Assembly: GCF_050920415.1 (NCBI RefSeq)
Contig: NZ_CP169309.1
Source: Escherichia coli
GTDB taxonomy: Bacteria > Pseudomonadota > Gammaproteobacteria > Enterobacterales > Enterobacteriaceae
Direction: 5' to 3' (one strand)
Length of the DNA stretch: 64,000 nt
This document shows, piece by piece, positions 24,572 to 54,189 of this stretch. Position numbers and translations under genes: made by a program. The notes under the pieces are model-generated. The model saw only the letters and a program-made list of their open reading frames with translations. It was not told where the DNA came from and searched no databases. Position 1 is the stretch's first letter. The number at the start of each line of letters is the position of its first letter.

Positions 24572-27537
24572 TATGCAAGCCTCACAATATAGTTAAATGC
24601 GATGTTTTTGACGGTGTTTTCCGCGTTACCAGCAGCGTTAACGGTGATGGTGTGTCCATGTGAACCAATCGCAACGGAGTGCGTATGAGCACCAATACCG
24701 ACAGTATGCGCGTGTGCACCTGCAGATGCTGCTGTGCCGGACAGTGAATGGCTATGATTACCATCTGTACTGGTATTCGCTAACCACCCCGTAGACATAC
24801 CTACTGAGCCTTGTACACCCCAGGTATTTTGACCTGAGCTTGTATAACCATATTGATAAGTATCTTTAAAAACACTGGGGTTAAATCGACGGCCATCTCT
24901 ATGGCTGTGATTACCAGCTGCATTCGTGCTGCCACTTAAACTATGGGTATGCGCACCAGTGTTATTCGTGGATTTAGTGCCGTAATCAAACGACGATGTG
25001 GTTTTCGTCCCCAAATCCGTACTGGATGCGCTGGCGCTGTGGGTATGCGATTTAATGCCGTCCTGTTCCTGAGACAATACGGCCCGACCACTGGCAGGTT
25101 TGCCCTTAATCGTCCAGCCACGCATATCAGGGATCACGCCTGACGGATAAGCGGCTGCAAGTTTCGGGTATGCAGATTTGTCAAAAGTCTGCCCCTGCAT
25201 CAGGGCATAGCCAGACGGAACGGTATCTGATGGCCACGGGATTGGTGCGCCAGGCGGATAAAACTGCTCTGATGGCGTATAGAGTGAATAAACTGTACCG
25301 TCCGTTAACCCTTCCGGCTTATTAGCAGAATATGCTGGTGACGTATGAATCGTCACGCTGGCATTACTGGTATAATCCCATTGAATATTTACACCAGTCG
25401 CATAATTTCCGATTGCAACGTAAATATCGTAAGTATCACCAGATGTATTGACCCAGGCAAAATTTGTAAACCCTGTCGATGTGCGCTGCCATAAAGCACC
25501 AGTAATCCCCTTCGGATTACCATTACCTGCACGTAAAACAAGTTCAGATATACCTGCCTGTTGAGGTGACCCCACGTTAAATCCAGCGCCACCAATCAAC
25601 GTAATTGAAACAACAGAACTCGCCTGTGGCATGGTTACCGTTGCTAATTTGAACCAACCAGCACCACCGCTGAATGACATTGTTGTTGAGTTAAGCGTAC
25701 CAATATCTTTCGGCGTCAGTGTTATATCCGCTGAAAGCGCCTTACCATTCACCTTACGGGCAGAAGGTACCCGACCATTCGCATTGTCATTAGCTGCTTT
25801 CACTGCTTTCGGTGTCGCAGCAAGCGTTTCAGATGTGCTGTTGGTTGCACTACTGAGCTGGACAATTCCTTTTTGTGCTGTCGTAGCGTCCTGTGCGGTG
25901 TATTTCCCGTTAGCCAGGTCATACGCGGCCTTAACGGCTTTTGGCGTTGCCGCCTGTGACTCGGAAGTGCTGTTAGTCGCACTGCTGAGCTGAACTATCC
26001 CTTTCTGTGCTGTCGTTGCATCCTGTGCGGTGTATTTCCCGTTAGCCAGGTCATACGCGGCCTTAACGGCTTTTGGCGTTGCCGCCTGTGACTCGGAAGT
26101 GCTGTTGGTCGCACTGCTGAGCTGTACTATCCCCTTTTTCGTCGTGCTCGCATCCTCAAGCGCCACGGCGGATGCAATATCCTCTGCCCGTTTTGCTGCT
26201 GTCTCGGCGCGCGTTGCCGCGGATTCCGCCGTACTTTTGCTCTGTGCTGCCGCTGCCGCACTGCCAGCAGCCTCTGTCGCCTTCGTGGATGCCGTCGTGG
26301 CGCTGCCCCTCGCTGCTGACGCCTGTCTGGTCGCCTCATCTTTTGAAGCAGACGCAGATGATGCCGATGACGCCGCCGAACTGGCGGACGATGCGGCAGC
26401 CGTTTTTGAGGATTCTGCGCTGGTTTCCGACGCTTTCGCGTTCGTTTCGGATGTCTTCGCTGCGGAAGCAGACCTCGCTGCTGCGCTGGCCTGTTCAGTG
26501 GCTTCGCCAGCCTTCGTTGTGGCTGTTGAAGCGGATGATGCGGCGCTTTCTGCCGATTTTCCGGCGGCGGTGGCACTGACTGCTGCCTCCTCTGCCTTAA
26601 TGGACGCCTCACGGGCCGATGATGCAGCTGCTGTCTCAGAGTCTGCCGCAGCTGAGGCGCTCTGTTCCGCTGCCGTTTCAGAAGACCTGGCATTCGTCTC
26701 GGACGTTTTTGCCGCCTTCACGGAATTTCCTGCCGCCGTTGCCGAGGAGGCTGCACTGCTGGCGCTTGTGGAGGCGTTCGTTTCTGATGATTTTGCCGCC
26801 TCTTTGGAGGCCGCCGCATCTCTGGCTGAAGTGGCGGCTTCTGACGCTTTCGTCGTCGCAGTGGATGCAGAAGTGGCTGCTGATTTTTGTGACGCTGCAG
26901 CATTCGTTTCTGACGTTTTCGCCGCACCGGCACTGGTGGCCGCCGCGCTTTTTGAGGACTCTGCAGCGGCAGCACTTTTTGATGCTTCAGTGGCCTTTGT
27001 TGATGCCGTTCCTGCGCTGGAAGACGCCTCCTGAGCCGAAGTCGCGGCCTGTCCGGCTGACGTGCTGGCTGCACGCGCTGAGCCTGCAGCATCAGTCGCA
27101 TGGGTTGCCGCCTCACGGGCAGATGTGCCGGCATCACTGGCTGACTTCTTCGCGGCTGCCGTGTTCTGTGCCACCGCGGACGCGTTACGCGTCACCTCTT
27201 CCACCATCAGTTCAAAACGGCGCAGAGCCTCCGGACGGGCATCATCCTCCGTCATGGCACCGAGAAAATCATTCAGCGTACCGGGTCGGGAATCTTCATA
27301 CACGGTGATGGTCCCGGCATGTGACGGCGGGAATCCTTCCACCAACAGAATAACGCTGTACTGACCGTACTCAACGTCCATGCTGTAACGCCCGGCTTCA
27401 TCCGGATTTTCTGAGGCCAGCGTGTTCACCACCACCGTGGTGCTGTTACGTTTTGCTTTCAGCTGGATTGTGCAGTTCTGTACCGGTTTTCCTGTGCCGT
27501 CTTTCAGTACACCTGAAATCTTTACTGCCATATTCAC
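24571..27537 (-). CDS. stf: Side tail fibre protein Stf (long form, Ala/Ser/Thr-rich repeats)
   Basis: 988-aa ORF after lom; conserved phage tail-fibre N-terminus ([17 protein letters not shown]...), internal 44-aa tandem repeats, C-terminal receptor-binding region. Confidence 0.9.
25795..26165. repeat. Approx. 132-bp tandem direct repeats (about 3 copies) inside stf
   Basis: Near-identical DNA blocks encode repeated [44 protein letters not shown] units; boundaries approximate. Confidence 0.7.
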
Positions 27538-27595
27538 CCCACAAAAAAGCCCGCCTGAACCGGCGGGCTGTCATAACACTGTGTTACCTGGCTAA

Positions 27596-28195
27596 TCAGA
27601 ACTTATAACCGACACCCACGATGAAACCGTCAGTGCGCCAGTCGCCACTGCCGGAGCCTTCATAAGCAATATCAATGGCCACGGATTCGGTCGGGTTAAA
27701 CTGCACGCCAGCTCCCCACGCCAGAGACGTGTTGCTGTGGCGACCGTCATCACTTCCGGTCAGCACGTCGTGCGTTTTCCCCTTGTTGTCAGTTACGCGG
27801 AGATAATCCCCGGAGAAAGTCGACACACGGCTGTAAGCCACACCCGCCATCGCATACGCGCTGAACCATTCATTCACGCGCACAGACGGCCCCGCCATTA
27901 CGCTGAACCAGCGGTTACGAACGGAATCTTCATGCCAGCGAGTATCGCTGTAATGGGTCAGCTGGCGATTCTTGTCTCCTGCATAGCTGAATGACGTCAC
28001 CAGCCCCAGCGTATCCGTAAACTCATAACGGTATTTCACGTTAATCCCGTTCAGATCATCACTGCCGGGAACGTTGGTCCGGGCATGAAGATACCCCGCG
28101 CTCAGCGTGGACTGATGTTCAGACGCCCATGCAGGCGCACCGGATACGGCCAGACAAATGGCTGCGGACAAAATGGCGGCACAAACTTTACGCAT
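27596..28195 (-). CDS. lom: Lom outer-membrane protein (Ail/Lom family)
   Basis: 199-aa ORF with signal peptide, near-identical to lambda Lom; canonical position after J. Confidence 0.92.
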   Translation of the reverse strand: MRKVCAAILSAAICLAVSGAPAWASEHQSTLSAGYLHARTNVPGSDDLNGINVKYRYEFTDTLGLVTSFSYAGDKNRQLTHYSDTRWHEDSVRNRWFSVMAGPSVRVNEWFSAYAMAGVAYSRVSTFSGDYLRVTDNKGKTHDVLTGSDDGRHSNTSLAWGAGVQFNPTESVAIDIAYEGSGSGDWRTDGFIVGVGYKF

Positions 28196-28265
28196 AATTA
28201 CCTCTCGCTTTTCTGCAATAAAAAAGGCGTCATTCCTGACGCCATTTATTGGGGTTATAAATATT

Positions 28266-31200
28266 TCAACGAATACTGATGCCGGAAGCCGCTTTTTTGG
28301 TCACAATCACCGTACAGTCGGTGATATTGCCTGCCCCCTGATTGCCTTTCTGGAAAATCTTAAACTCCAGAGTGACGCTACCACCACCACTAGGCATATC
28401 AATAACTGCACTGTAACTACCGGGAATGGCCCCTTTAGTTTCTCTGGATGCGATTAATACGCCGTTTTTGCGAACTTCAAAACCATAACCCGTGTATCGC
28501 GTGCCTCCTGGGTTATTTCCGCTCCCCGGATCGTCATACGCTATACCGTTAAAAATAATGGGCGGAATAATAATCTGGCGGTCAAAGTTATGATCATCGC
28601 TGATGGTGACTGTAACCGTACCGTTTGGTGTTTCCGTGTTACCCCACGTACCGACTTTTTTCGGGAAGGCTTTTGATACAGCTTTAACGAAATCCCCTCT
28701 GACCTGGGTCGCCTCCAGCATGCCCTTAATCGTACAGTTTTCATTTACCGTGACATTGTTGAGCGTTCCTGAGTTCGCATTCACACTACCACTGATATCC
28801 GCATTTTTAGCGGTCAGCTTTCCGTCTGATGTCAGGGAAAATACCGGAGGACTGCCACCGCTGGTAATGGTGGGGGCTGTCAGGCGCTTCAGGAACACGT
28901 CGTTCATGAATATCTGGTTGCCCTGCGCCACAAACATCGGCGTTTCATTCCCGTTTGCCGGGTCAATAAACGCGATACGATTGGCGGCAACCAGAAACTG
29001 GCTCAGCTTGCCTTCCTCCGTGTCCTCCATGCTGAGGCCAATACCCGCGACATAATGTTTGCCGTCTTTGGTCTGCTCAATTTTGACGCCCCACATAGCA
29101 TTCCATTTATCGTTAGCGTCCTTCCACTCTTTCGAAAACTCATCCAGTCTGCTGGCGTTATCCTCCGTCAGGTCGACTTTTTCCAGCAGCTCTTTACCGA
29201 GATGGGATTCGGTTATCTTGCCTTTGAAAAAATCCAGGTAACCTTCCGCATCATCGCTCGCCCGACCGACGGCCTCCACGAATGCCGATTTGCCAACGGT
29301 GTTCACACTGCGGATATAAAAGTAATAATCATGGCCCGGTTTGATATTGATACTGGCGGCTATCCAGTACAGCCCCGTGCCAAGGTAGCGGGCTGTGGTT
29401 TCAACCTGCCTGATATCGGTAATCCGCGTTTCCGAGAACCAGAACTCAAACTGTACCGTCGGATCATAAACCGCAAGATGCGGCGTGGCGGTTATCTGAA
29501 AATAGCCCGGCGTCAGCTCAATCCGCGACGGCGCTGCCGGGGCGGCAATCCGGAACGATACCGACGCCGGATCGCCCTGCTGTCCCCGGGCATTTACCGC
29601 TCGGACCGTCAGCGTGTAACGCCCCAGCGTCAGTTGCCTGAAGCGGTAAGTGGTTTCCGTCGTCCGGGCCGTGCTGACCAGCCGCTCACTGCCGTCATCG
29701 GCGGCCACGGTCAGGCGAAGCATAAAGCTCACGCCCTTCACCACCTTCGGCGTATCCCAGCGCGCCAGCACCTGGTATTCCCCGCTGTCTGCGGTGACTT
29801 CGGCGGTCAGGTGCTGCACCGCTGGCGGCGTGACACCATTCACCGTGCCGCTCTGGTCGCCGTCAAAGTGCGCCCCGTTATCCACGATGGCTTCTTTTTC
29901 CGGTACATGCTGCACGGCGGTGATGGCATACGTGCCGTCGTCGTTCTCACGGATACTCACGCAGCGGAACAGGCGCTGGCGCAGCGTCGGCAGCTTCAGC
30001 CCCCACACGCTGTATTCAGCAACGCCGTCAGGAACACGGCTCACTTTCACCTTCACGCCGTCGGTGACGGACTGAACCTCCACGCTGACCGGATTGCCAC
30101 TTCCGTCAACCAGGCTTATCAGCGTGGTACCGGAGGATGGCAGCGTGATTTCACGGTCGAGCGTCAGCGTCCGGGTCTGGCTGTTTACCGCCAGCACGCG
30201 ACCACCGGTGCTGATACCGGCATAGTCATCATCGCAGATTTCAATGACATCGCCCGGTACATGGCGAAGCCCTTCAGCACCCACGCTGAAGTCCACGGTC
30301 TGCGTTTCCAGCAGTTCCGTTTTAATCAGCCACAGCCCGGCGCGGTGCGCCTGCCCCCGGCTGGTACAGCCAAAGGCATCCATCTTCGTGACGTTACGAC
30401 CGTAACGGGCAATGGCCTGCGCATCTTCAACAAGCTCTGTCGCCGTCTCCCAGCCGTTATCCGGGTCAATCCAGTTCACCTCAACGGCATTATGGCGGTC
30501 CTTCAGGGCGCTGAAACTGTAGCGGAACGGCGCGCCATCATCCGGCATCACCACATTACTGCGGTTATAGGTCCACACCTTATCTGATGGTCGGTCCTGC
30601 ACGAACGTCAGCGTCTGCCCGTTCCATACCGGCATACAGCGCATCGCCGAGCAGAAATCACTGAGCACATCCCACGCCTTACGCTGCGTGGTCAGGTAGG
30701 CATTACAGGTGATGCGCGGCTCCGTGCCGCCAAAACCGTCCGGCACTGACTGGTCGCAGTACTGGCCGATGACATACAGCGCCCATTTATCCACATCCGC
30801 CGCACCAAGACGTTTCCCCATGCCGTAGCGCGGATGGGTCAGCATATCCCACAGACACCAGGCCATGTTGTTGCTGTATGCCGGTTTAAACGTTCCGTCC
30901 CAGATACCGCTGTATTGCCGCGTCTGCGGGTTATAGTTCGACGGCACCTGCAGAATGCGCCCGCGCAGATGATAATTACGGCTCACCTGCTGGCTGCCGA
31001 ACTGCTCCGAATCCACCTGCACGCCGACCAGTGCCGTGTTCGGGTAGCCCTGTTTCACATCGATGATTTCGGTGTATGACGACCAGAGCGTTTTGTTCTG
31101 CAGCTGGTCTGTGGTGCTGTCCGGCGTCATCCTGCGCATCCGGATATTAAACGGGCGCGGCGGCAGGCTACCCACCACCACCGAGGCCAGATACTGCGAG

Positions 31201-31679
31201 GTGGTTTTGCCCTTAATGGTGATGTCTTTTTCCGTCACCCAGCCACCGTTACGTTGTATCTGAACCAGCAGACGGACTTCCGACGGATTCCTGTCACCCT
31301 TTGAGGTGGTTTCCACCAGTGCCTGTACACCGAAGGTAAAGCGCAGACGGTCGATGTTTGCAGACGTAATGGTGCGGGTGATCGGCGTGTCATATTTCAC
31401 TTCCGTACCCAGCACCGTCTCGGAGCCGGAGGATTCAAACCCCTCCGGCGGTGTCTGCTCCTGCTCACCGGCACGGAACACCACCGTGACACCGGAGATG
31501 TTGGTATTCCCCTCAGTGTCCAGCACCGGCGTACTGTTCAGCAGCACGCTTTTTAATCCATCCACCGGACCTTCAACCGGCCCTTCGCTGATGGCATCGA
31601 TCACACTCAGCAACTGCGTGGACTTCAGGTTGTCCTTCGCTTCGCGCGGGGTATGCCCCTTACTGCTTCCTTTACCCAT
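28266..31679 (-). CDS. J: Tail tip host-specificity protein J
   Basis: 1137-aa ORF matching lambda J ([26 protein letters not shown]...). Confidence 0.95.
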
Positions 31680-31739
31680 TCCTCACGCTCCATAAATGAC
31701 AAAACCGCCCGCAGGCGGTTTCACATAAAACATTTTGCA

Positions 31740-32411
31740 TCAGCGACCAATCACCACAACCTGACCACCGTCCCCTTCGTCTGCCGTGCTGATCTCCTGA
31801 GAAACCACGCGTGACCCCACGCGCATTTCCCCGTACAGAACAGGCAGAACATTGCCCTGGGCAACCATGTTATCCAGTGAGGAGAAATAGGTGTTCTGCT
31901 TACCGTTATCCGTTGTCTGTGTACGGGGAGTTCTGGCTTTCGGTGCCAGCATCTGCGCCACACCACCGAGCACCATACTGGCACCGAGAGAAAACAGGAT
32001 GCCGGTCATACCACCGGCCCCAATGGCTGCCCCCCATGCTGCAAGGGTGGCTCCGGCGGTAAAGAATGATCCGGCAATGGCGGCAGCCCCCAGGACAATC
32101 TGGAATACGCCACCTGACTTGGCCCCGGCGACTCTGGGAACAATATGAATCACAGCGCCATCAGGCAGAGTCTCATGTAACTGCGCCGTTAACCCGGACG
32201 TGCTGACGTCCCGCCCGGCAATCCGTACCTGATACCAGCCGTCGCTCAGTTTCTGACGAAACGCCGGGAGCTGTGTGGCCAGTGCCCGGATGGCTTCAGC
32301 CCCCGTTTTCACACGAAGGTCGATGCGGCGACCAAATCGTTGTAAATCCCCGTAAAGGCAGATGCGCGCCATGCCCGGTGACGCCAGAGGGAGTGTGTGC
32401 GTCGCTGCCAT
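31740..32411 (-). CDS. I: Tail assembly protein I
   Basis: 223-aa ORF, lambda gpI length, overlaps K as in lambda. Confidence 0.9.
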   Translation of the reverse strand: MAATHTLPLASPGMARICLYGDLQRFGRRIDLRVKTGAEAIRALATQLPAFRQKLSDGWYQVRIAGRDVSTSGLTAQLHETLPDGAVIHIVPRVAGAKSGGVFQIVLGAAAIAGSFFTAGATLAAWGAAIGAGGMTGILFSLGASMVLGGVAQMLAPKARTPRTQTTDNGKQNTYFSSLDNMVAQGNVLPVLYGEMRVGSRVVSQEISTADEGDGGQVVVIGR

Positions 32412-33052
32412 TTGTCGGTGTACCTCTCTCGTTTGCTCAGTTGTTCAGGAATATGGTGCAGCAGCTCGCCGTCGCCGCAGTAAATTGCGGCGTGATTCGG
32501 CACCGATGAACCAAAACAGCACAGCAGCACATCGCCCGGCTGTGCCGCTGACAACGGCACCTGATACAGCCCCGTCGCCTCCAGATTATCCAGATAGAGA
32601 TTCTGGCCGTTACGCCACCAGTCATCCTCACGATGAAAGTCCGGCATCTCAATCCCCGCCAGATGATAAGCATCCCGGAACAGTGTGTAACAGTCCGTCA
32701 CACCGTGCTCAAAGCGCCGCCCGGTGAGATGCGGCACACAGCGGAACTTATGAATCGTCCCCCGGCAGACCAGCCACCACGGCAAATCACTCTGCACCTG
32801 CAGCCGCCGGTCGGCCTCACTCAGCCAGGGCAGACCACCGGGGTGGCTGTGGACCAGCGCCACAATCTCACCCTGCATTTCTGCCTGCAGCCAGTCTTCC
32901 GGCGACATACGGAAATACGCCTCCGGCTCACCGGAGATATTCACGCAGGGGAAATATCTTTCCCCCTCCGGCGTGCTTACCACGAAGCCGCACGACTCCG
33001 CTGGCGCACATCGCCGGGCGTGCGCCAGAATCGCTGATTCTGTCTGTGTCAT
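32309..33052 (-). CDS. K: Tail assembly protein K (NlpC/P60-like)
   Basis: ORF directly after L in lambda order; Cys/His peptidase-like motifs. Confidence 0.88.
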   Translation of the reverse strand: MTQTESAILAHARRCAPAESCGFVVSTPEGERYFPCVNISGEPEAYFRMSPEDWLQAEMQGEIVALVHSHPGGLPWLSEADRRLQVQSDLPWWLVCRGTIHKFRCVPHLTGRRFEHGVTDCYTLFRDAYHLAGIEMPDFHREDDWWRNGQNLYLDNLEATGLYQVPLSAAQPGDVLLCCFGSSVPNHAAIYCGDGELLHHIPEQLSKRERYTDKWQRRTHSLWRHRAWRASAFTGIYNDLVAASTFV

Positions 33053-33057
33053 GGGAT

Positions 33058-33756
33058 TTACTGCGAAAGTTTGTTAATGGAAAGGAAGCCGCCAAAGTTG
33101 CCGACGTTATTGCGGAACTTACAACCGCTCAGGCATTTGCTGCATTTATCCTTCGTGATATCGGACGTTGGCTGGTCATATTCATCCGCGACAGCCGGAC
33201 CGCTATAACCGCACTCGTCACCGCGATAGGTCCAGGTGCAGGTGTTGGCCAGCATGATACGTCCCGGAAAAACAGCGCCATCCGTTTCCGTCGGCGTGGA
33301 CAGTACAAAGGAGGCACTCACCGCGCTCAGTTCGCTGCACTGCTCAATGCGCCAGCGGCTGATCACCTCCTGCTCCGGATCGGCATAACTGTTTCCGTTG
33401 ACGAAGTTCACCGCATCCAGAAAACGGGCGTAAACCTTACGCCGGACCACCGTTCCGCCGACCAGACTCTGCATATCTTCCGCCATCCCGGTGACCATAC
33501 CGTACAGGTTAGAAACCGTCAGCGTGGGGCGCGTACTGGTGCCTTTGCCATTCAGTTCAAAACCGCTCCCCTGAATGGGATACGGCTGATACTGTCGCCC
33601 CTGCCAGGTGACCGGCTCACCTTTTTCGTTCTGCTCATTACAGAAAAAATAACGTTCTCCACCGACCTCTGTCAGGTCGATTTCCCAGAGCACCACGCTG
33701 GCCGACTGCTCCGCACGGGTGCATTCATTCAGTGTTTCCTGCCGGATATCCTGCAT
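33058..33756 (-). CDS. L: Minor tail protein L
   Basis: 232-aa ORF, lambda gpL length and order. Confidence 0.9.
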   Translation of the reverse strand: MQDIRQETLNECTRAEQSASVVLWEIDLTEVGGERYFFCNEQNEKGEPVTWQGRQYQPYPIQGSGFELNGKGTSTRPTLTVSNLYGMVTGMAEDMQSLVGGTVVRRKVYARFLDAVNFVNGNSYADPEQEVISRWRIEQCSELSAVSASFVLSTPTETDGAVFPGRIMLANTCTWTYRGDECGYSGPAVADEYDQPTSDITKDKCSKCLSGCKFRNNVGNFGGFLSINKLSQ

Positions 33757-34085
33757 CAGTTCACCACCTGTTCAAACTCTGCGCTGAACTCAACACGCAG
33801 CATACTGACCCGCGACGACCATTTTGCGCAGGTCACCTTTATCTGCCGCCACTCATAAGGCGGCGTCCACAGAAAGGATTTCCAGCCCCCGTGCTCTTCC
33901 AGAAACGACTCCAGTACCGTGGCCTCCTCACGGGGGACAGAAAGCGTCACGCTGTACGTTTTCAGGTTGGCATTCAGCCCGGCAGGCGCTCGCTGAGAAT
34001 AGCCATCACCAAAGCGCACCTTTCTTACAGAAGGGACCGAAGCCACATCCATACCGGGTTTCACTTTCCAGCGGAAGGTCTTCAT
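33756..34085 (-). CDS. M: Minor tail protein M
   Basis: 109-aa ORF, lambda gpM length and order. Confidence 0.9.
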   Translation of the reverse strand: MKTFRWKVKPGMDVASVPSVRKVRFGDGYSQRAPAGLNANLKTYSVTLSVPREEATVLESFLEEHGGWKSFLWTPPYEWRQIKVTCAKWSSRVSMLRVEFSAEFEQVVN

Positions 34086-36643
34086 CGTCCACCTCCGGAG
34101 AACAGGCCACCATCACGCATCTGTGTCTGAATTTCATCACGGGCACCCTTGCGGGCCATGTCATACACCGCCTTCAGAGCAGCCGGACCTATCTGCCCGT
34201 TCGTGCCGTCGTTGTTAATCACCACATGGTTATTCTGCTCAAACGTCCCGGACGCCTGCGACCGGCTGTCTGCCATGCTGCCCGGTGTACCGACATAACC
34301 GCCGGTGGCATAGCCGCGCATCAGCCGGTAAAGATTCCCCACGCCAATCCGGCTGGTTGCCTCCTTCGTGAAGACAAACTCACCACGGTGAACAATCCCC
34401 GCTGGCTCATATTTGCCGCCGGTTCCCGTAAATCCTCCGGTTGCAAAATGGAATTTCGCCGCAGCGGCCTGAATGGCTGTACCGCCTGACGCGGATGCGC
34501 CGCCACCAACAGCCCCGCCAATGGCGCTGCCGATACTCCCGACAATCCCCACCATTGCCTGCTTAAGCAGAATTTCTGTCATCATGGACAGCACGGAACG
34601 GGTGAAGCTGCGCCAGTTCTGCTCACTGCCGGTCAGCATCGCTGCCATATTCTGTGCAATACCATCAAAGGTCTGCGTGGCTGCACTTTTTACCTGCGAC
34701 ATACTGTCCGTGGCGCTCTCTTCCCACTCACTCCAGCCGGACTTCAGGCCTGCCATCCAGCTCCCGCGAAGCTGGTCTTCAGCCGCCCAGGTCTTTTTCT
34801 GCTCTGACATGACGTTATTCAGCGCCAGCGGATTATCGCCATACTGTTCCTTCAGGCGCTGTTCCGTGGCTTCCCGTTCTGCCGGCCGGTCAGTCAGCCC
34901 CCGGCTTTTCGCATCAATGGCGGCCCGTTTTGCCCGTTGCTGCTGTGCGAATTTATCCGCCTGCTGCGCCAGCGCGTTCAGGCGCTCCTGATACGTAACC
35001 TTGTCGCCAAGTGCAGCCAGCTGGCGTTTGTACTCCAGCGTCTCATCTTTATGCGCCAGCAGGGATTTCTCCTGTGCGGACAGCTGGCGACGTTGTGCCG
35101 CCTCCTCCAGTACCGCGAACTGACTTTCTGCCTTCCACAAATCCCGGCGCTGCTGGCTGATTTTCTCATTTGCTCCGGCATGCTTCTCCAGCGTCCGGAG
35201 TTCTGCCTGAAGCGTCAGCAGGGCAGCATGAGCACTGTCTTCCTGACGATCGCCCGCAGACACCTTCACGCCGGACTGTTTCGGCTTTTTCAGCGTCGCT
35301 TCATAATCCTTTTTCGCCGCCGCCATCAGCGTGTTGTAATCCGCCTGCAGGATTTTCCCGTCTTTCAGTGCCTTGTTCAGTTCTTCCTGACGGGCGGTAT
35401 ATTTCTCCAGCGGCGTCTGCAGCCGTTCGTAAGCCTTCTGCGCCTCTTCGGTATATTTCAGCCGTGACGCTTCGGTATCGCTCTGCTGCTGCGCATTTTT
35501 GTCCTGTTGAGTCTGCTGCTCAGCCTTCTTTCGGGCGGCTTCAAGCGCAAGACGGGCCTTTTCACGATCATCCCAGTAACGCGCCCGCGCTTCATCGTTA
35601 ACAAAATAATCATCCTTGCGCAGATTCCAGATGTCGTCTGCTTTCTTAAACGCAGCCTCTGCCTTAATCAGCATCTCCTGCGCGGTATCAGGACGACCAA
35701 TATCCAGCACCGCATCCCACATGGATTTGAAGGCCCGCGCAGTCCTGTCTGCCCAGGTCTCCAGCGTGCCCATGTTCTCTTTCAGGCGGCGGGTCTGGTC
35801 ATCAAACCCTTTCGTTGCGGCCTCGTTCGCCGCCTGCAATGCCCCGGCTTCATCGCCGGAACGCTGCAACTGAGCAACATACGCAATCTGCTCCGCCGTC
35901 ACGTTATGGAACTGGCGTGCCATCGCCGTCAGCCCCGACGTCGGGTCTGTGGTCAGCTTCCCGAAGGCTTCAGCGACCTTGTCCACCTCCACGCCGGATG
36001 CAGAGGAGAAACGCGCCACACTCTGGCTGATGGACGCAATCTGAGCCTCACCGCTTACCCCCGCCTTAACCAGTGCGCTGAGTGACTCGCTGGTCTGGTT
36101 AAACGTCAGCCCTGCCGCCTGCCCGGCTCTGGACAGGACCAGCATGCGATCTGCCGTCAGACCCGACTGATTGCCGGAAAGGACCAGCGTTTTGTTGAAA
36201 TCGGACAGGGTTGAGTTGCCCTGATACCAGGCATACGCCAGCGCACCGGTCGCCACCGCCAGCGAGGTGGCCCCCACCATCGGCAGGGTGATCGCACCGG
36301 CAAGCCCCCTGAACATGGGGATCATCCCGCCGAAGGAGTCCTTCACCTGCCCCCCCTGTTGCAGCAGGATCAGCCACGGACTTTGCCCGCCTGCAAGCTG
36401 CGTGGCCACGTCGGTGAACTGTGCAGGCAGCATACGCATGGCGGCTTTATACTGCCCGACGGAAATCCCCGCTTTCTGTGCAGCCAGCGCCTGTCGGCTC
36501 AGCGACTGTTCAACGACTGCCGCTGTTTTTTTCGCATCACTTTCCGTACCGGAAAAATGACGCCTGACTCTGGCCATCTGCTCGTCAAATCTGGCCGCAT
36601 CCAGACTTAAATCAACGACCAGATCGCCTACCGGTTCAGCCAT
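34082..36643 (-). CDS. H: Tail tape measure protein H
   Basis: 853-aa ORF (lambda gpH length), coiled-coil rich, Gly-rich C-terminal region. Confidence 0.93.
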   Translation of the reverse strand: MAEPVGDLVVDLSLDAARFDEQMARVRRHFSGTESDAKKTAAVVEQSLSRQALAAQKAGISVGQYKAAMRMLPAQFTDVATQLAGGQSPWLILLQQGGQVKDSFGGMIPMFRGLAGAITLPMVGATSLAVATGALAYAWYQGNSTLSDFNKTLVLSGNQSGLTADRMLVLSRAGQAAGLTFNQTSESLSALVKAGVSGEAQIASISQSVARFSSASGVEVDKVAEAFGKLTTDPTSGLTAMARQFHNVTAEQIAYVAQLQRSGDEAGALQAANEAATKGFDDQTRRLKENMGTLETWADRTARAFKSMWDAVLDIGRPDTAQEMLIKAEAAFKKADDIWNLRKDDYFVNDEARARYWDDREKARLALEAARKKAEQQTQQDKNAQQQSDTEASRLKYTEEAQKAYERLQTPLEKYTARQEELNKALKDGKILQADYNTLMAAAKKDYEATLKKPKQSGVKVSAGDRQEDSAHAALLTLQAELRTLEKHAGANEKISQQRRDLWKAESQFAVLEEAAQRRQLSAQEKSLLAHKDETLEYKRQLAALGDKVTYQERLNALAQQADKFAQQQRAKRAAIDAKSRGLTDRPAEREATEQRLKEQYGDNPLALNNVMSEQKKTWAAEDQLRGSWMAGLKSGWSEWEESATDSMSQVKSAATQTFDGIAQNMAAMLTGSEQNWRSFTRSVLSMMTEILLKQAMVGIVGSIGSAIGGAVGGGASASGGTAIQAAAAKFHFATGGFTGTGGKYEPAGIVHRGEFVFTKEATSRIGVGNLYRLMRGYATGGYVGTPGSMADSRSQASGTFEQNNHVVINNDGTNGQIGPAALKAVYDMARKGARDEIQTQMRDGGLFSGGGR

Positions 36644-36685
36644 ACCGGACTCCTCCTGCGATCCCTTCTGATACTGTCATCAGCA

Positions 36686-37066
36686 TTACGTCATCTCCGT
36701 CATGTCCGCCACATCCGGGGAAGCGGGGATAACTTCATTCCCGTCCGGGCCAAAGCGGACACCTCCGGCAAGCCCTGCCGCTTTCTGCATCAGCACATCA
36801 TCTTCAGGCTCTTCGTCAGCCTCGCGCCGGTTCAGCAGACTGAAATCCAGCGGATGCATATCCGGATCGCTGAAAAACAGGCTGAGCACGGTGTACGTCA
36901 GCCCGGAAAAGTGCATATCCAGCAGAACATCATGAAAATAATGGGTACTGTAAAAGCGGTGCCAGTCGGCATACTCCGTGGATGACATCCCGGCAAGCAT
37001 GGCACGCCAGTCAGGTCGCCCCATCTCACGCGCCAGTTTCAGGGCAAAACTCAGCTCACCGTCGAA
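36686..37066 (-). CDS. T: Tail assembly chaperone T frame (normally made only as a G-T fusion by -1 frameshift)
   Basis: Open frame matching lambda T (FDGELSFALKLAREMGRPDWRAMLAG...), no independent start; frame relationship to G is abnormal here (see findings). Confidence 0.7.
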   Translation of the reverse strand, partial: FDGELSFALKLAREMGRPDWRAMLAGMSSTEYADWHRFYSTHYFHDVLLDMHFSGLTYTVLSLFFSDPDMHPLDFSLLNRREADEEPEDDVLMQKAAGLAGGVRFGPDGNEVIPASPDVADMTEMT

Positions 37067-37472
37067 CACTTTCCCGCAGAAACAGGCTCTGCGGGCCCGG
37101 CGTCCTCTGTCTGTTCAGGGCATTATTCACCACAAACTCATACATACCAGACAGCCGGTACACCACGTTTTCAGCATGAGAAATTGCCTCCGTGGGCCAG
37201 GTGGTAAGCACTTCCTGCTCAATCTGTTTAACGGCTTCATTCATGGACGGCAGCTTTGTCTTCTGCGGATGGTTATGCCACAGGGACATCGCCACCAGAA
37301 ACGCGCCGGTTCTGATGGCGTCTTCCACAGTAAACTTCCGGTTGCTGTCTGACTCCGCCTGTTCTGCCTGCCGTTTCATCAGGGCGAGATGCTCAATGCG
37401 CTGCAGGGCTGACAGTTCAGAAAGCGTGACGGTCACACCGTTATGTTCAAATGATTCGGTTTTCAGGAACAT
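37056..37472 (-). CDS. G: Tail assembly chaperone G (C-terminus altered by a 1-nt deletion)
   Basis: 138-aa ORF matching lambda G up to ...EFVVNNA, then a divergent 21-aa tail ending in a different frame; slippery GGGAAAG is present but out of phase. Confidence 0.85.
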   Translation of the reverse strand: MFLKTESFEHNGVTVTLSELSALQRIEHLALMKRQAEQAESDSNRKFTVEDAIRTGAFLVAMSLWHNHPQKTKLPSMNEAVKQIEQEVLTTWPTEAISHAENVVYRLSGMYEFVVNNALNRQRTPGPQSLFLRESVRR

Positions 37473-37487
37473 CGCTGACTCTCCGGA

Positions 37488-37739
37488 TTAACTGTCGGTG
37501 ACAGTGATTTCTGCAACCGCAGCAAGTTCACCATTACCGGATAAAACCGGAATGTTGACCTTACCTGCAGCAACGCCTTTCACGGTGATGGTCATACCAC
37601 TGACCGACACGGTGGCTTTTGTTTTATCCGCTGACACCGCACGGAAGCTCTTGTCAGTTGCGCCCTCCGGCTGGAATGCCACGGTCAGCGTGGTGCTCTG
37701 CCCTTTCACCACCGAGGAGCTGGCAGGCGTCACGGTCAT
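37488..37739 (-). pseudogene. V: Major tail protein V, C-terminal Ig-like domain fragment (out of frame with the N-terminal part)
   Basis: 83-aa ORF matching lambda V C-terminus ([24 protein letters not shown]...). Confidence 0.75.
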
Positions 37740-37753
37740 ACCGGTTGCCGCTG

Positions 37754-38227
37754 TTACCGTGCTGCGATTTCTGCCATTGACGGACGGCCCACATTGGTGA
37801 CCTTCACCGTACGGGTGATCACTTCCTTCGCCGTCACCGCCTTACCGATACTGCTGACCCAGCCACGGAACACATCGACCGTGCCGTTCGGGAAGCGGAT
37901 TTTATAGGCACGGGTATCACCTTCATTAAACCACGCCAGCAGCGCCTGCTGCCCCTGCTCTCCGGGCATCCACGCCAGCGTGAAGCTGGTATCTCCGGCG
38001 GATTTCTGCCCCTGCCCGGTCGCGGTCCAGTCCGCATCTTCATCATCGAGATAACTGTCGTCATAGGACTCAGCGGTCAGTTCGCCGGGCGTCAGGTCTT
38101 TAACTTTAGCCAGACGCGACCAGTCAACGTCTGAAAGCGGGTTCGCATAAGGGTCGCCGCTCCCGTTATAAACCCACAGGGTGGTCCCGGCACCTTTCAC
38201 CGGTATTGCTGGATTTGGTACAGGCAT
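37754..38227 (-). CDS. V: Major tail protein V, N-terminal tube domain (truncated by frameshift)
   Basis: Matches lambda V from MPVPNP... to ...GRPSMAE, then leaves frame and stops after 4 codons. Confidence 0.85.
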
Positions 38228-38234
38228 ATCGTCC

Positions 38235-38630
38235 TCACATTTCATAGGTAATGACATAAGTCAGATCGGCAGAACTCCACAGGCCCGCATCATCGTCGCG
38301 CCGGTAGTCATAGCCACTGGCCACCATACTGGTGATCAAATCTGACAGTGCCGGGATATCGCTCATCACCGGATAAATCCGGGACTCCATCCACGCATCC
38401 AGCTCTGAATCCGGCACCTGAGCAGGCAGGAAAACTTCGATATGCAGTTCCGCCTGCCAGGTATCGCTGTCCAGCTCTTCGCCCGTGTATTCAGCGCCGG
38501 TGAGATAAACGGCAACTGCCGGAAAATCCGCCTCATCAAAAACAGCGGGGCGACCATCAAAAAACGTCGCCCCGGTGTCATGCTTCTCCAGTGCATCCAG
38601 TACGGCTGCACGGAGTTCAGTATGTTTCAT
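38235..38630 (-). CDS. U: Tail terminator protein U
   Basis: 131-aa ORF matching lambda gpU ([26 protein letters not shown]...). Confidence 0.95.
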
Positions 38631-39216: not shown

Positions 39217-39570
39217 TCAGCGGCGACGGTTAACGGCAGGCGGTACGCCCCGCCCAAGCCAGAGATGACAGCTTCCGCCATCATCCGGCGAAATCCGGTC
39301 TATCCAGAAGTTTTCCTCACCGATGGTCAGCGTGTCGCCGCGCCGCAGCTGCCGCACATCATCAGTCCGGACAAACATGGACGGGCTGGAGCCTTCAACG
39401 CGCACGCCCGGTCCGGCATAGCTGATATTTTCAGGGTCATCAAAAACACCACGTATCACAGCACCGGACTGCTCACCGGATGTCATGGTGGCTGACGTTC
39501 CCATGTACCCGCGTATCGTTTCATCGGCGCGGGCAATGGCAGCATCGAACAGGTTATCGAAATCAGCCAC
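39217..39570 (-). CDS. FII: Head-tail connector protein FII
   Basis: 117-aa ORF matching lambda gpFII (MADFDNLFDAAIARADETIRGYMG...). Confidence 0.95.
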   Translation of the reverse strand: MADFDNLFDAAIARADETIRGYMGTSATMTSGEQSGAVIRGVFDDPENISYAGPGVRVEGSSPSMFVRTDDVRQLRRGDTLTIGEENFWIDRISPDDGGSCHLWLGRGVPPAVNRRR

Positions 39571-39581
39571 AGCGCCTCCCG

Positions 39582-39977
39582 TTATTGCATTCTGGCCAGG
39601 CCGCGCTCTGTCATTTCGGCTGCCACACCGGCAGAGACACGGAACGCCGTTCCCGGCAGCACAAATGCCACAGGTTCATCCCGCGTGGCGTGAAGTGCAT
39701 CAGTATGCAGCGTCACCAGTGCCACAACCGTGACCAGATCAGCCGTATCAGTCACGGTATCCGGCTGCGCTGATACCACCTCATTTTCATGTCCGGTCAG
39801 CGCATTTTCCGGGCTGACAGATGTGTCCTGACCGGCAGCGTCATCCGTGTCATCAAGCTCCTCTTCCAGCTCTGCCACACGGAGCGCCAGTTCTTCTTTC
39901 GTCCCCGTCAGGCTGACATCACGGTTCAGTTGTTCACCCAGCGAGCGGAGACGGGCAATCAGTTCATCTTTCGTCAT
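39582..39977 (-). CDS. FI: DNA packaging protein FI
   Basis: Start chosen at MTKDELIARLRSLGEQLNRD as in lambda gpFI; ORF track gives a longer frame from 40016. Confidence 0.9.
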   Translation of the reverse strand: MTKDELIARLRSLGEQLNRDVSLTGTKEELALRVAELEEELDDTDDAAGQDTSVSPENALTGHENEVVSAQPDTVTDTADLVTVVALVTLHTDALHATRDEPVAFVLPGTAFRVSAGVAAEMTERGLARMQ

Positions 39978-40018
39978 GGACTCCTCCACAGAGAGAAAAT
40001 GGCCCCGAAGGGCCATGA

Positions 40019-41044
40019 TTACGCCAGTTGTACGGACACGAACTCATCAGGGTCAGCCAGCAGCATCAGCGGTGCTGACTGAATCATGGTGAACTCACGC
40101 GCCGGATCGCCGGTGGTCACCCAGTTTTTCGGGTAACGGGCAGAGGCGTTAATGCCTTCGCGCTGTGCGTCCGCATCCTGAATGCAGCCATAGGTGCGCA
40201 GACCGCGTGCCTGAGTGTTACCCAGCACCATCGTGTTGTCCGGCAGGAAGTTCTTTTTGACGCCGTTTTCCACGTACTGTCCGGAATACACGACGATGGC
40301 CACATCGCCATACATCCCCTTATAGGACACCGCTTTGCCCAGGTCTTTCACCGCTGTCTCCAGCTCGGAATTAGAGCCACGACGGGTATCCAGCTTCTCC
40401 CTGACGGCTTTGAAGGAACGGAACAGCGCCCAGCCTTTCGGATCGAACACGATGATATTCACCACACCGCTGGCGTTCAGCGCGTAGGCTTCGATATCGT
40501 CGGTCGGGTCATACGTGGACTTGTCACGCTTGCTCCACTCCGTGCCGCCGGACTGCGTGATGTTATTCTCCTCACTGCGGCCCATATCCACCTCAACCGG
40601 ATCGAAGGCTTCACCGGTCATGGTGTATTTGCCCTTAAGCACGGCAGAAACTGCCTGCATCTCTTCGACCTGAGCAATGGCCAGCTCTTCGTCACGCATG
40701 TTCTGCATGATGATGCGACGGCGGCGGTAAGCCGGGTCCGCCAGATTCTGCGGATCTTCATCCGGCAGGCGACGCAGGGTCATCTGCGGATTCACTTCAT
40801 GCTTCGGCTTGACATATCCCGGCGTAAATTCAGAGGTGGAGCCGCCACGGGAACGGATAACCTCACCGGAAACAATCGGCGAAACGTACAGCGCCATGTT
40901 TACCAGTCCCGGAATTTGTGAGAGATAGACTTTCTCCGTGGTGAAGGGATAGCTCTCACGGAAAAAGAGACGCAGAAACAGCGGATCAAACTTAAATTTC
41001 TGCTCATTTGCCGCCAGCAGTTGGGCGGTTGTGTACATCGACAT
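40019..41044 (-). CDS. E: Major capsid protein E
   Basis: 341-aa ORF matching lambda gpE (MSMYTTAQLLAANEQKFKFDPLFLRLFF...). Confidence 0.97.
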   Translation of the reverse strand: MSMYTTAQLLAANEQKFKFDPLFLRLFFRESYPFTTEKVYLSQIPGLVNMALYVSPIVSGEVIRSRGGSTSEFTPGYVKPKHEVNPQMTLRRLPDEDPQNLADPAYRRRRIIMQNMRDEELAIAQVEEMQAVSAVLKGKYTMTGEAFDPVEVDMGRSEENNITQSGGTEWSKRDKSTYDPTDDIEAYALNASGVVNIIVFDPKGWALFRSFKAVREKLDTRRGSNSELETAVKDLGKAVSYKGMYGDVAIVVYSGQYVENGVKKNFLPDNTMVLGNTQARGLRTYGCIQDADAQREGINASARYPKNWVTTGDPAREFTMIQSAPLMLLADPDEFVSVQLA

Positions 41045-41100
41045 AAAAAAATCCCGTAAAAAAAAGCCGCACAGGCGGCCTTTAGTGATGAAGGGTAAAG

Positions 41101-41433
41101 TTAAACGATGCTGATTGCCGTTCCGGCAAACGCGGTCCGTTTTTTCGTCTCGTCGCTGGCAGCCTCCGGCCAGAGCACATCCTCATAACGGAACGTGCCG
41201 GACTTGTAGAACGTCAGCGTGGTGCTGGTCTGGTCAGCAGCAACCGCAAGAATGCCAACGGCAGCACCGTCGGTGGTGCCATCCCACGCAACCAGCTTAC
41301 GGCTGGAGGTGTCCAGCATCAGCGGGGTCATTGCAGGCGCTTTCGCACTCAATCCGCCGGGCGCGGTTGCGGTATGAGCCGGGTCACTGTTGCCCAGCGG
41401 CTGGTAATGGGTAAAGGTTTCTTTGCTCGTCAT
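41101..41433 (-). CDS. D: Capsid decoration protein D
   Basis: Matches lambda gpD from [12 protein letters not shown]...; 110 aa. Confidence 0.95.
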
Positions 41434-41442
41434 AAACATCCC

Positions 41443-42742
41443 TTACACTGGTGTGTTCAGCAAATCGTTAACGGCATCAGATGCCGGGTTACCTGCAGCC
41501 AGCGGTGCCGGTGCCCCCTGCATCAGACGATCCAGCGCAGTGTCACTGCGCGCCTGTGCACTCTGTGGTGCTGCGGCCAGAATGCGGCGGGCCGTTTCCA
41601 CGGTCATACCGGGGGTTTCTGCCAGCACGCGTGCCTGTTCTTCGCGTCCGTGAGCCTCCTCACAGTTGAGGATCCCCATAATGCGACTGTTTTCTGCCGC
41701 AACCGCTGCGGTGATCTGCGCGTTCACGTCCGGCTGCGCCGCGCTGGCGTTTTCGCCCTCCGTCGCTGGCACCACGTCAGTAACGTCAGCCTGCGAAGCA
41801 GTGGCTGAAACAGTTGTTGATTGAGTCTCTTTGGTCATTCGCCCTCCTGAGAGACGGGATTTACGTGCATCCAGTGCATCACGCATGACGGTGATCGCAT
41901 CGGTGCTGTTAACAAGTTCATCAGCCAGTCCGGCATCAATGGCCTCCTGACCGCTGTACACTGCAGCCTCGGTATCCAGCACAGCCTGCACGGACAGGCC
42001 GGTATATGCCGACACCTTCTGCGCAAACATCTGGCGGGTTGCGTCCATCCGGGACTGCAGTGTCTCCCGGACGTCATCCGGAAGATGGCTGTAGGGGTTG
42101 CCATCCACCTTATGGCTGCCGCTGTAAATCAGCGTGATTTCCACACCCTGTTTCTCCAGCGCAGCACCGTAATTACTGTGAGCCATCATGACGCCGATGG
42201 AGCCTGTCCGGGCGGTCTGCGTGACCAGACGCCGGGAGGCGGCACTGGCAAGCAGCTGACCTGCACTGCAGTTCATGTCGTTGGCCAGCGCCCATACCGG
42301 TTTTATGTCACGCACACGGGCGATGATGTCAGCGCAGTCAAATGCCCCCGCCACCATCCCGCCGGGCGTGTCCATATCGAGCAGAATGCCGTCCACCATC
42401 GGATCGCTGGCAGCCTGTTGCAGACGGGCGATAATGCCGTTGTAACCGGTCATCCCCGAATACGGCTGCAGCGCCCGCGTCCGGCTGACCAGCGTGCCGG
42501 AAACCGGCAGCACGGCGATGCCGTTCATGACCTGATAACTGCGGGCCTGTCGTGGTCCGTCATCATCACCGGATAACGCCAGCGTCGCGGGTGTCTCCGG
42601 GGCAGTCAGGCTGTCACCGGACACCGCATCTGTCAGGCGGCTGATCCCAAGCTGGCCTGCAAGCGCACAAAAGAAAACCCGCGCATAGGCGGGTTCAAGC
42701 ATCAGCGGCTCATTAAAGGCCATACTGGCAATATGCGGGAGA

Positions 42743-42762
<20 letters not shown>
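41443..42762 (-). CDS. C: Capsid assembly protease C (with nested scaffold Nu3 frame)
   Basis: Matches lambda gpC; start taken at the GTG corresponding to lambda MTAELRNLPHIASMAFNEP (439 aa), overlapping the end of B. Confidence 0.92.
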
Positions 42763-46443
<3,681 letters not shown>

Positions 46444-46469
<26 letters not shown>

Positions 46470-46989
46470 TCAGCAACCCCGGTATCAGTTCATCCAGCGC
46501 GGCTGCTTTGTTCATGGCTTTGATGATATCCCGTTTCAGGAAATCAACATGTCGGTTTTCCAGTTCCGGAAAACGCCGCTGCACCGACAGGGGGATCCCG
46601 TCGAGAATACTGGCAATTTCACCTGCGATCCGCGACAGCACGAAAGTACAGAATGCGGTTTCCACCACTTCAGCGGAGTCTCTGGCATTTTTCAGCTCCT
46701 GTGCGTCGGCCTGCGCACGCGTAAGTCGATGGCGTTCGTACTCAATAGTCCCTGGCTGGAGATCTGTCTCGCTGGCCTGCCGCAGTTCTTCAACTTCCCG
46801 GCGCAGCTTTTCGTTCTCAATTTCAGCATCCCTTTCGGCATACCATTTTATGACGGCGGCAGAATCATAAAGCACCTCATTACCCTTGCCACCGCCTCGC
46901 AGAACGGGCATTCCCTGCTCCTGCCAGTTCTGAATGGTACGGATACTCGCACCGAAAATATCAGCCAGCTGCTTTTTGTTGACTTCCAT
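46444..46989 (-). CDS. Nu1: Terminase small subunit Nu1
   Basis: 181-aa ORF essentially identical to lambda Nu1 (MEVNKKQLADIFGASIRTIQNWQEQGMPVLRGGGKGNEVLYD...). Confidence 0.97.
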
Positions 46990-47166
46990 TGTTCATTCCA
47001 CGGACAAAAACAGAGAAAGGAAACGACAGAGGCCAAAAAGCTCGCTTTCAGCACCTGTCGTTTCCTTTCTTTTCAGAGGGTATTTTAAATAAAAACATTA
47101 AGTTATGACGAAGAAGAACGGAAACGCCTTAAACCGGAAAATTTTCATAAATAGCGAAACCCCGCG

Positions 47167-47178
47167 AGGTCGCCGCCC
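47167..47178. other. cos site cohesive-end sequence (cosN; GGGCGGCGACCT on the minus strand)
   Basis: Plus-strand AGGTCGCCGCCC is the reverse complement of the lambda 12-nt cohesive end; flanking sequence matches both lambda genome ends. Confidence 0.8.
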
Positions 47179-47377
47179 CGTAACCTGTCGGATCGCCGGA
47201 AAGGACCCGCAAAATGATAATAATTATCATCTACATGTCACAACGTGCATCTACGCCATCAAACCACGTCAAATAATCAATTATGACGCAGGTATCGTAT
47301 TAATTGATCCGCATCAACTTAACGTAAAAACAACTTCAGACAATACAAATCAGCGACACTGAATACGGGGCAACCTC

Positions 47378-47572
47378 ATGTCAACGAAGAACAGAACCCG
47401 CAGAACAACAACCCGCAACATCCGCTTTCCTAACCAAATGATTGAACAAATTAACATCGCTCTTGATCAAAAAGGGTCCGGGAATTTCTCAGCCTGGGTC
47501 ATTGAAGCCTGCCGTCGGAGGCTAACGTCAGAAAAGAGAGCATATACATCAATTAAAAGTGATGAAGAATGA
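47378..47572 (+). CDS. Small ribbon-helix-helix-like protein (ylcI-like)
   Basis: 64-aa ORF; IRFPNQMIEQINIALDQKGSGNFSAWVIEACRRRL resembles an Arc/MetJ/CopG RHH fold; same position as an unnamed lambda right-end ORF. Confidence 0.55.
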   Translation: MSTKNRTRRTTTRNIRFPNQMIEQINIALDQKGSGNFSAWVIEACRRRLTSEKRAYTSIKSDEE

Positions 47573-47736
47573 ACATCCCGCGTTCTTCCCTCCGAACAGG
47601 ACGATATTGTAAATTCACTTAATTACGAGGGCATTGCAGTAATTGAGTTGCAGTTTTACCACTTTCCTGACAGTGACAGACTGCGTGTTGGCTCTGTCAC
47701 AGGTTAAGTAGTTTGAATGATTAGCAGTTATGGTGA

Positions 47737-47943
47737 TCAGTCAACCACCAGGGAATAATCCTTCATATTATTATCGTGCTTCACCAACGCTGCCTCAATT
47801 GCCCTGAATGCTTCCAGAGACACCTTATGTTCTATACATGCAATTACAACATCAGGGTAACTCATAGAAATGGTGCTATTAAGCATATTTTTTACACGAA
47901 TCAGATCCACGGAGGGATCATCAGCAGATTGTTCTTTATTCAT
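47737..47943 (-). CDS. Small hypothetical protein (ybcW-like, 68 aa)
   Basis: 68-aa ORF at lambda right end; same size and position as DLP12 ybcW. Confidence 0.5.
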
Positions 47944-48228
47944 TTTGTCGCTCCATGCGCTTGCTCTTCATCTAGCGGTTAAAATATTACTTCAAATCTT
48001 TCTGTATGAAGATTTGAGCACGTTGGCCTTACATACATCTGTCGGTTGTATTTCCCTCCAGAATGCCAGCAGGACCGCACTTTGTTACACAACCAATACT
48101 ATTAATTGAAAACATTCCTAATATTTGACATAAATCATCAACAAAACACAAAGAGGTCAGACCAGATTGAAACGATAAAAACGATAATGCAAACTACGCG
48201 CCCTCGTATCACATGGAAGGTTTTACCA

Positions 48229-48639
48229 ATGGCTCAGGTTGCCATTTTTAAAGAAATATTCGATCAAGTGCGAAAAGATTTAAACTGTGAATTGTTTTAT
48301 TCTGAACTAAAACGTCACAATGTCTCACATTATATTTACTATCTAGCCACAGATAATATTCACATTGTGTTAGAAAACGATAACACTGTGTTAATAAAAG
48401 GACTTAAAAAGGTTGTAAATGTTAAATTCTCAAGAAATACGCATCTTATAGAAACGTCCTTTGATAGGTTGAAATCAAGAGAAATCACATTTCAGCAATA
48501 CAGGGAAAATCTTGCTAAAGCAGGAGTTTTCCGATGGGTTACAAATATCCACGAACATAAAAGATATTACTATACCTTTGATAATTCATTACTATTTACT
48601 GAGAGCATTCAGAACACTACACAAATCTTTCCACGCTAA
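48229..48639 (+). CDS. DUF1398-like protein (ybcV-like)
   Basis: Start chosen at the ATG with GGAAGG 10 nt upstream (136 aa); the ORF-track frame opens earlier at a TTG. Same position as DLP12 ybcV. Confidence 0.55.
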
Positions 48640-48929
48640 ATCATAACGTCCGGTTTCTTCCGTGTCAGCACCGGGGCGTTGGCATAATGCAATACGTGTA
48701 CGCGCTAAACCCTGTGTGCATCGTTTTTAATTATTCCCGGACACTCCCGCAGAGAAGTTCCCCGTCAGGGCTGTGGACATAGTTAATCCGGGAATACAAT
48801 GACGATTCATCGCACCTGACATACATTAATAAATATTAACAATATGAAATTTCAACTCATTGTTTAGGGTTTGTTTAATTTTCTACACATACGATTCTGC
48901 GAACTTCAAAAAGCATCGGGAATAACACC

Positions 48930-49223
48930 ATGAAAAAAATGCTACTCGCTACTGCGCTGGCCCTGCTTATTACAGGATGTGCTCAACAGACGTTTACTGT
49001 TCAAAACAAACAGACAGCAGTAGCACCAAAGGAAACCATCACCCATCATTTCTTCGTTTCTGGAATTGGGCAGAAGAAAACTGTCGATGCAGCCAAAATT
49101 TGTGGCGGCGCAGAAAATGTTGTTAAAACAGAAACCCAGCAAACATTCGTAAATGGATTGCTCGGTTTTATTACTTTAGGCATTTATACTCCGCTGGAAG
49201 CGCGTGTGTATTGCTCAAAATAA
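48930..49223 (+). CDS. bor: Bor lipoprotein (serum-resistance, lysogenic conversion)
   Basis: 97-aa ORF near-identical to lambda Bor (MKKMLLATALALLITGCAQQTFTVQNK...), lipobox LITGC; opposite to late genes as in lambda. Confidence 0.95.
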   Translation: MKKMLLATALALLITGCAQQTFTVQNKQTAVAPKETITHHFFVSGIGQKKTVDAAKICGGAENVVKTETQQTFVNGLLGFITLGIYTPLEARVYCSK

Positions 49224-49254
49224 TTGCATGAGTTGCCCATCGATATGGTCAGCT

Positions 49255-50210: not shown

Positions 50211-50425
50211 TATTCACCTCTCGCAGCCTTGCGCTTATCTTCTTTAATCTTGAAATAAAGGTTTGTCAGGTACGTCAGCAGGCCAAATACCAGGCTACCC
50301 AGCACACCTATTGCTGCCCACTGTGAGGGCGTGACTTTATCGAGCAGCTGTAAAAACCAGTAACCGGCACTACCTGCTGAGGTGCCATAGGCGACACCCG
50401 TTGTTAACTTATCCATGGATTTCAT
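50210..50425 (-). CDS. S: Class II holin / pinholin (phage 21 S-type)
   Basis: 71-aa ORF with two TM segments and dual-start N-terminus; essD / S21-like. Confidence 0.9.
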
Positions 50426-52258: not shown

Positions 52259-52285
52259 AATAACTTTTAGTAAACAACTGGCATA

Positions 52286-54159: not shown

Positions 54160-54189
54160 GCTTCACCTCCGCAGAGGTCAAACGCTGGA

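Follow-up and report, generated by a model that had tools for sequence, protein, structure and literature searches.

The major tail protein of phage lambda, gpV, is a protein of 246 residues in which a tail-tube domain (gpVN, residues 1-156) is followed by a Big_2 Ig-like domain (gpVC, residues 157-246). In a lambdoid prophage of Escherichia coli, the same two domains are found in two different reading frames. Does this split reflect the decay of a prophage, a natural tube-only tail protein, a site of recoding, or simply a base that is missing from the deposited sequence? Here, we argue that the split V probably stems from an error left in the consensus of the deposited assembly, rather than being a feature of the organism.

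The window, i.e. the whole stretch of 64,000 nucleotides that was analysed, is a part of the E. coli chromosome with cusCFBA/RS, nfrBA, ybcH, envY and ompT. From about 22.3 kb to the window end it holds a full-length lambdoid prophage in the DLP12 position, whose head and tail genes are on the minus strand. The break in V is inside the tail module, which runs in the order Z-U-V-G-T-H, and V is located between U and G/T/H, the position that is characteristic of lambda gpV-type proteins. We mapped the 48 annotated prophage genes of HN68 onto the window and found 45 of them intact, with the right length and without internal stop codons; the only broken genes are T, G and V. Across these 48 mapped genes, the prophage shows neither IS insertions nor nonsense codons, and no deletions of larger size.

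The split V gene and its companions in G and T

The V gene starts with the ATG at 38227-38225, which is preceded by GAGGA. From this true start, the N-terminal ORF (37754-38227, minus strand) encodes 157 residues, which comprise a full tail-tube domain corresponding to lambda V residues 1-153 (...VGRPSMAE), followed by four out-of-frame codons (IAAR) and a TAA stop. The linker and the Big_2 domain are encoded in the -1 frame (37488-37841, minus strand), which is open from 37841 and has its first ATG at 37739. The 83-aa ORF that begins there (37488-37739) aligns with lambda V residues 164-246, and the lengths of the parts add up to that of lambda V: 153 residues, 10 residues of missing linker and 83 residues make 246. 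In the first part, the Pfam domain Phage_TTP_12 is complete (residues 18-152, model positions 1-135 of 135, E = 5e-71), and Big_2 is detected in the second frame (E = 1.6e-19). Being in the -1 frame and past the stop codon, Big_2 is not on the tube-domain polypeptide, and the two domains are joined only after one base is restored.

The break is at codon 154, and its cause is the loss of one base. In the DNA alignment, the coding strand reads GAAGATCGC in lambda and in four related prophages, and GAAATCGC in the window. The missing base belongs at 37768-37769 (plus strand GCGAT[C]TTCTG; coding strand GAA[G]ATCGC, with the lost base in brackets) and is the G of a GATC Dam site. When the base is re-inserted, an uninterrupted V of 246 residues is obtained, which is identical to WP_001360639.1, the V of MFDS1022581. 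This restoration is a direct sequence comparison in which chance is not a factor. Judged by its sequence, the gene is an ordinary lambda-type V: it is 96% identical to lambda gpV over both parts, with the same domain pair and the same U-V-G-T-H order, and it differs from lambda gpV in that the two domains are in different frames, with one base missing at codon 154.

An earlier note on this DNA had described two minus-strand ORFs at 37754-38257 and 37488-37739, placed a 1-nt frameshift between the tube and the Ig-like domains, and pointed out that the two parts together with a 10-aa linker sum to 246 residues. The observation is confirmed in each of these respects, the frameshift by both DNA alignment and one-base restoration. 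The interval flagged for the break, 37735-37765, does cover the stop codon and the downstream ATG, but the deletion itself lies 3 nt outside it.

Could the two frames be used together in translation? In phage SPP1, gp17.1* is a form of the major tail protein to which an FN3 domain is added by frameshift (PMC8718954), and the window resembles gp17.1/gp17.1* in having tube and Ig-type domains in two overlapping frames. A -1 ribosomal frameshift would add the Ig-like domain to some of the V molecules, or translation would re-initiate at ATG 37739. The -1 frame is indeed open for about 33 codons ahead of the V stop, and ATG 37739 sits 14 nt past that stop. However, the overlap (codons 125-157) has neither an X XXY YYZ heptamer nor a homopolymer run, the longest run being AAA, and ATG 37739 has no Shine-Dalgarno sequence. 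Of 2210 homologous places, not one has the two-frame layout, and the relatives are all single-frame. Moreover, no recoding signal explains why G and T have the same type of lesion. Unlike SPP1 gp17.1*, the window has no slip site and no conserved arrangement, and a -1 shift would be needed, so that we do not count its V as a member of that class. Programmed -1 frameshifting and transcriptional slippage were both rejected, as there is no slippery heptamer, no homopolymer and no conservation, and we regard recoding at this locus as extremely improbable.

Single bases are missing from the G and T genes as well. In G, the plus-strand run GGGG at 37117-37120 has become GGG, which turns CCCC into CCC on the coding strand, at a point upstream of the slip site. 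The resulting ORF, G* (37056-37472, minus strand, 138 aa), is native up to ...VVNNA, continues with 22 foreign residues and is without the native C-terminus. The GGGAAAG slippery heptamer of G/GT (37069-37075, minus strand) is out of phase and is read as CGG GAA AGT, and the T frame is +1 relative to G*; a -1 slip therefore cannot make the GT fusion. In T, CC is reduced to C at 36694-36695 of the plus strand. The ORF T* (36686-37069, minus strand) is truncated at ...ADMTEMT, with the last 19 native residues gone and two foreign ones (MT) instead. A G/T lesion had been mentioned before in the earlier note and does exist, but the separate third lesion, in T, had been missed.

What would such a tail module be able to make? 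Small-V mutants of lambda, in which gpV is without its C-terminal domain, were reportedly described by Katsura in 1981, and the gpVN constructs of lambda end nearly where the 157-aa product of the window would. It had been claimed that the C-terminal domain of V is dispensable for tail formation in lambda. The literature agrees: according to the statement in PMC8718954 that cites Pell 2010, tails still form when gpV is without the C-domain, with an activity that is about 100-fold lower. The further suggestion, that a truncated V could still work here, is moot if the sequence is true, because the native C-terminus of G is lost and no GT is possible. The gpVN mutants had working G, GT and T, whereas in the prophage of the window all three are also disrupted. 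Lambda requires both gpG and gpGT (PMC3296357), and the prophage, if its sequence is true, cannot assemble tails because G and GT are broken.

Absence and clustering of the deletions

We searched 60-mers spanning each of the three deletions against 5426 complete E. coli genomes. The deletion was found at 0 of 2210 homologous places for V, 0 of 1346 for G and 0 of 4182 for T, and all of these places carry the extra base. A 27-mer across the V deletion had no match in GTDB species representatives, IMG/VR or JGI metagenome contigs, this wider scan covering the V deletion only. A comparison with closely related prophages, which the earlier note had proposed as a check, gave the same answer: the three bases are present in all 16 aligned loci (15 prophage loci and lambda), and V is single-frame in each. 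At the protein level, the J, portal, terminase, capsid, Z, U, CusA and NfrB products of the window have exact matches among about 15 billion proteins; an exact copy of its H protein is not recorded. The broken products (the N-terminal part of V and T*, each with two possible starts, the Ig-like ORF and G*) matched exactly to none of these proteins, which is a weak result, since NCBI pseudogenes get no protein record.

All three deletions fall within 1075 bp, in three adjacent genes. Compared with the prophage of MFDS1022581, the tract 35172-38335 (3164 nt) is free of substitutions, and the three deletions are the sole differences. Four more independent loci have no substitutions against the window across 35733-38335. 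The rest of the compared sequence is clean. Illumina sibling draft contigs align to window 18266-35298 (17.0 kb) with 0 indels and 3 mismatches, to 18266-32638 (14.4 kb) with 0 indels and 0 mismatches, and to 39476-54344 (14.9 kb) with 0 indels and 29 mismatches. Within genes, no other isolated one-base indel was found across the roughly 53 kb that could be aligned to HN68, Yu5 or RM10466. A mutator background was rejected as well, since comparison with sibling contigs over more than 46 kb brought up no further indels.

How surprising is this clustering? By our own rough estimate, the chance that three random events all fall in a 4.4-kb tract of 53.5 kb is (4.4/53.5)^3, or about 6e-4. In mutation-accumulation data of E. 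coli, indels make up about 10% of spontaneous mutations, and given this share the chance of three indels and no substitution is about 1e-3.

These numbers bear on the gradual decay of a defective prophage, in which independent neutral frameshifts would have accumulated and V would be truncated but possibly still polymerising. That V, G and T are all broken is in line with decay, as is the presence of annotated frameshifted prophage genes in related genomes. On the other hand, all the other mapped genes are intact, only three adjacent genes are affected, and by one kind of lesion, the one-base deletion. The lesions are packed into a small part of a prophage region of more than 40 kb, and three indels with no substitution in 3.16 kb would be improbable, as estimated above. 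No relative among the 5426 complete genomes carries any of the lesions. We consider gradual decay very unlikely, and the description of the locus as a decaying prophage in the earlier note holds up poorly on the same grounds: the lesions are clustered, consist of indels only with no substitutions, leave the 45 other genes intact and are unshared. Taken as a whole, its interpretation is partly supported.

A putative repeat as the probable setting of consensus errors

The nearest sibling with two informative contigs is the Illumina assembly GCA_035787075.1. Its contigs end at window positions 35298 and 39476, and both ends are exactly 127 nt beyond a polymorphic site (35171 and 39603, respectively) at which the window departs from several other prophage alleles. 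Such spacing points to a de Bruijn collapse at k = 127, with a second copy that is identical between the two sites. From the contig ends, 35172-39602 (4.4 kb) appears to be an exact two-copy repeat in GCA_035787075.1, and this putative repeat contains all three deletions. Draft contigs with the exact J and portal proteins of the window break before V, and the identical V allele occurs twice per genome in AP025751.1 and CP057186.1. The median number of V-region copies per carrying E. coli genome is 2. As the deletions are at least 1.5 kb from either repeat boundary, they would be beyond the reach of uniquely placed short reads.

The ancestry of this part of the prophage is mosaic. The window is nearly identical to RM10466 at 18.2-36.1 kb and at 37.8-39.1 kb, and the prophage is RM10466-type except for a patch of 1.7 kb (36146-37820) that has 24 substitutions against RM10466 and is identical to the Qin-site prophages of MFDS1022581 and JCKP02. 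This MFDS-type patch holds all three deletions, and gene conversion between resident prophages may be its origin. RM10466, D5, IBS28 and LT2-3 match 22300-35298 with a reported identity of 100.0%, but they carry a different V-G-T allele and are without an MFDS-type V copy. For this reason, they are no proxy for resequencing.

All three deletions share a patch of distinct ancestry, so a single event linked to recombination could account for their clustering. The deletions would then be real and would have arisen in a recent, strain-specific burst of -1 frameshifts, for which error-prone repair synthesis, as the patch was introduced by gene conversion, is a candidate route. In E. coli, break repair that depends on Pol IV leaves -1 deletions in short runs close to the breaks, and two of the three deletions here are in G:C runs. 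However, such mosaic patches are common among these prophages and the patch need not be recent; it is also without substitutions compared with the donor-type allele. In addition, there is no similar footprint at these sites in the other genomes among the 5426 examined, and a consensus error covers the same facts without a rare event. We therefore think that a burst of this kind is unlikely, and that its more specific form, single-event deletions by error-prone synthesis in gene conversion between two resident lambdoid prophages, is quite unlikely. If a burst did take place, the prophage would encode a tube-only V of 157 aa, G would be aberrant, T truncated and GT absent, and no tails would be made unless a second resident (sister) prophage supplied the proteins. 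The locus would then be a natural footprint of recombination-associated frameshift mutagenesis.

A residual consensus error would account for the split V as follows. The source assembly is presumably long-read based, and a stretch of about 3-4 kb of the tail module probably has a second identical copy elsewhere in the source genome, as suggested by the sibling assembly. Short reads would not be uniquely placeable there, so that indel errors of the long reads would outlive polishing; the single-base deletions in V, G and T are probably three such leftovers. In the cell, V would be a normal 246-aa protein with tube and Ig-like domains, and the products G, GT and T would likewise be normal.

The pattern in the window supports this explanation: there are deletions only, at about one per kb, within a tract that appears to be repeated in the sibling, and the unique flanks are error-free. 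Indels alone, at this density and in a presumed repeat that short reads cannot polish, fit consensus errors better than prophage decay. Residual errors of long reads are mostly indels, give rise to frameshifts and, in repeats, often survive polishing (10.1101/2021.10.14.464465). Two of the deletions shorten runs, of four G and of two C, and the third removes the G of a GATC Dam site; there are just three such sites, and their fit to long-read errors is suggestive. Base modification at GATC is known to reduce the accuracy of nanopore sequencing (PMC11610603). The locus resembles the repeat errors addressed by Polypolish (Wick and Holt) in that indel-only frameshifts occur in what is probably a multi-copy tract longer than the short-read insert, with clean unique flanks; it departs from typical repeat-polishing errors in that one of the three deletions, that in V, is outside a homopolymer.

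That the V deletion is not in a homopolymer is a counterpoint to consensus error. Moreover, frameshifted prophage genes are common in nature. If the source assembly were Illumina-only and the tract were present in a single copy, errors of the indel type would be very improbable, which would make the deletions real. Real deletions would represent ordinary inactivating mutation in an ordinary tail-defective prophage.

We would like to point out that, until reads confirm them, the broken frames of V, G and T should be taken neither for prophage decay nor for a natural tube-only tail protein or a new recoding site. The relevance of the locus is mainly one of data quality. Lone one-base indels that are unique, are accompanied by no substitutions and lie where sibling short-read assemblies break are a warning sign of unpolished consensus error.

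Other features of the prophage and its flank

Several other features of the prophage were observed. A porin gene (50999-52096, plus strand, 365 aa), apparently intact, is located between Q and the lysis genes, and may be compared with nmpC in DLP12. In the early region, a gene encoding a 500-aa DUF4041 protein (56520-58022, plus strand) lies between a P22AR-like gene and ren, on the opposite strand; it may be a moron or defence-type cargo.

At the other end of the prophage, a gene of the resolvase/invertase recombinase family (23308-23898, plus strand) lies beside the genes for the tail fibre and its assembly. Within the fibre gene there is an internal direct repeat of about 170 nt, of which the two copies (25835-26004 and 25967-26137) are 93% identical. 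The region as a whole (23308-27537) could include an invertible or variable fibre segment.

In some related prophages, the head-gene region is split between D and E by an element of about 11 kb (observed at 13708-21602 in locus L009 and at 6404-14298 in locus L012). The cargo of this element comprises an integrase, AlpA, a D5-type primase, an SSB, and capsid and decoration genes of its own. It looks like a capsid-encoding satellite that is integrated inside the prophage.

Outside the prophage, the cusA-cusS region (window 1-8776) shares only about 96% identity with Yu5, which among the complete E. coli genomes gave the best overall match to window 1-24000, whereas identity to Yu5 reaches about 99% in the adjacent nfrB-ompT region. 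This difference suggests that the cus allele is divergent or recombined.
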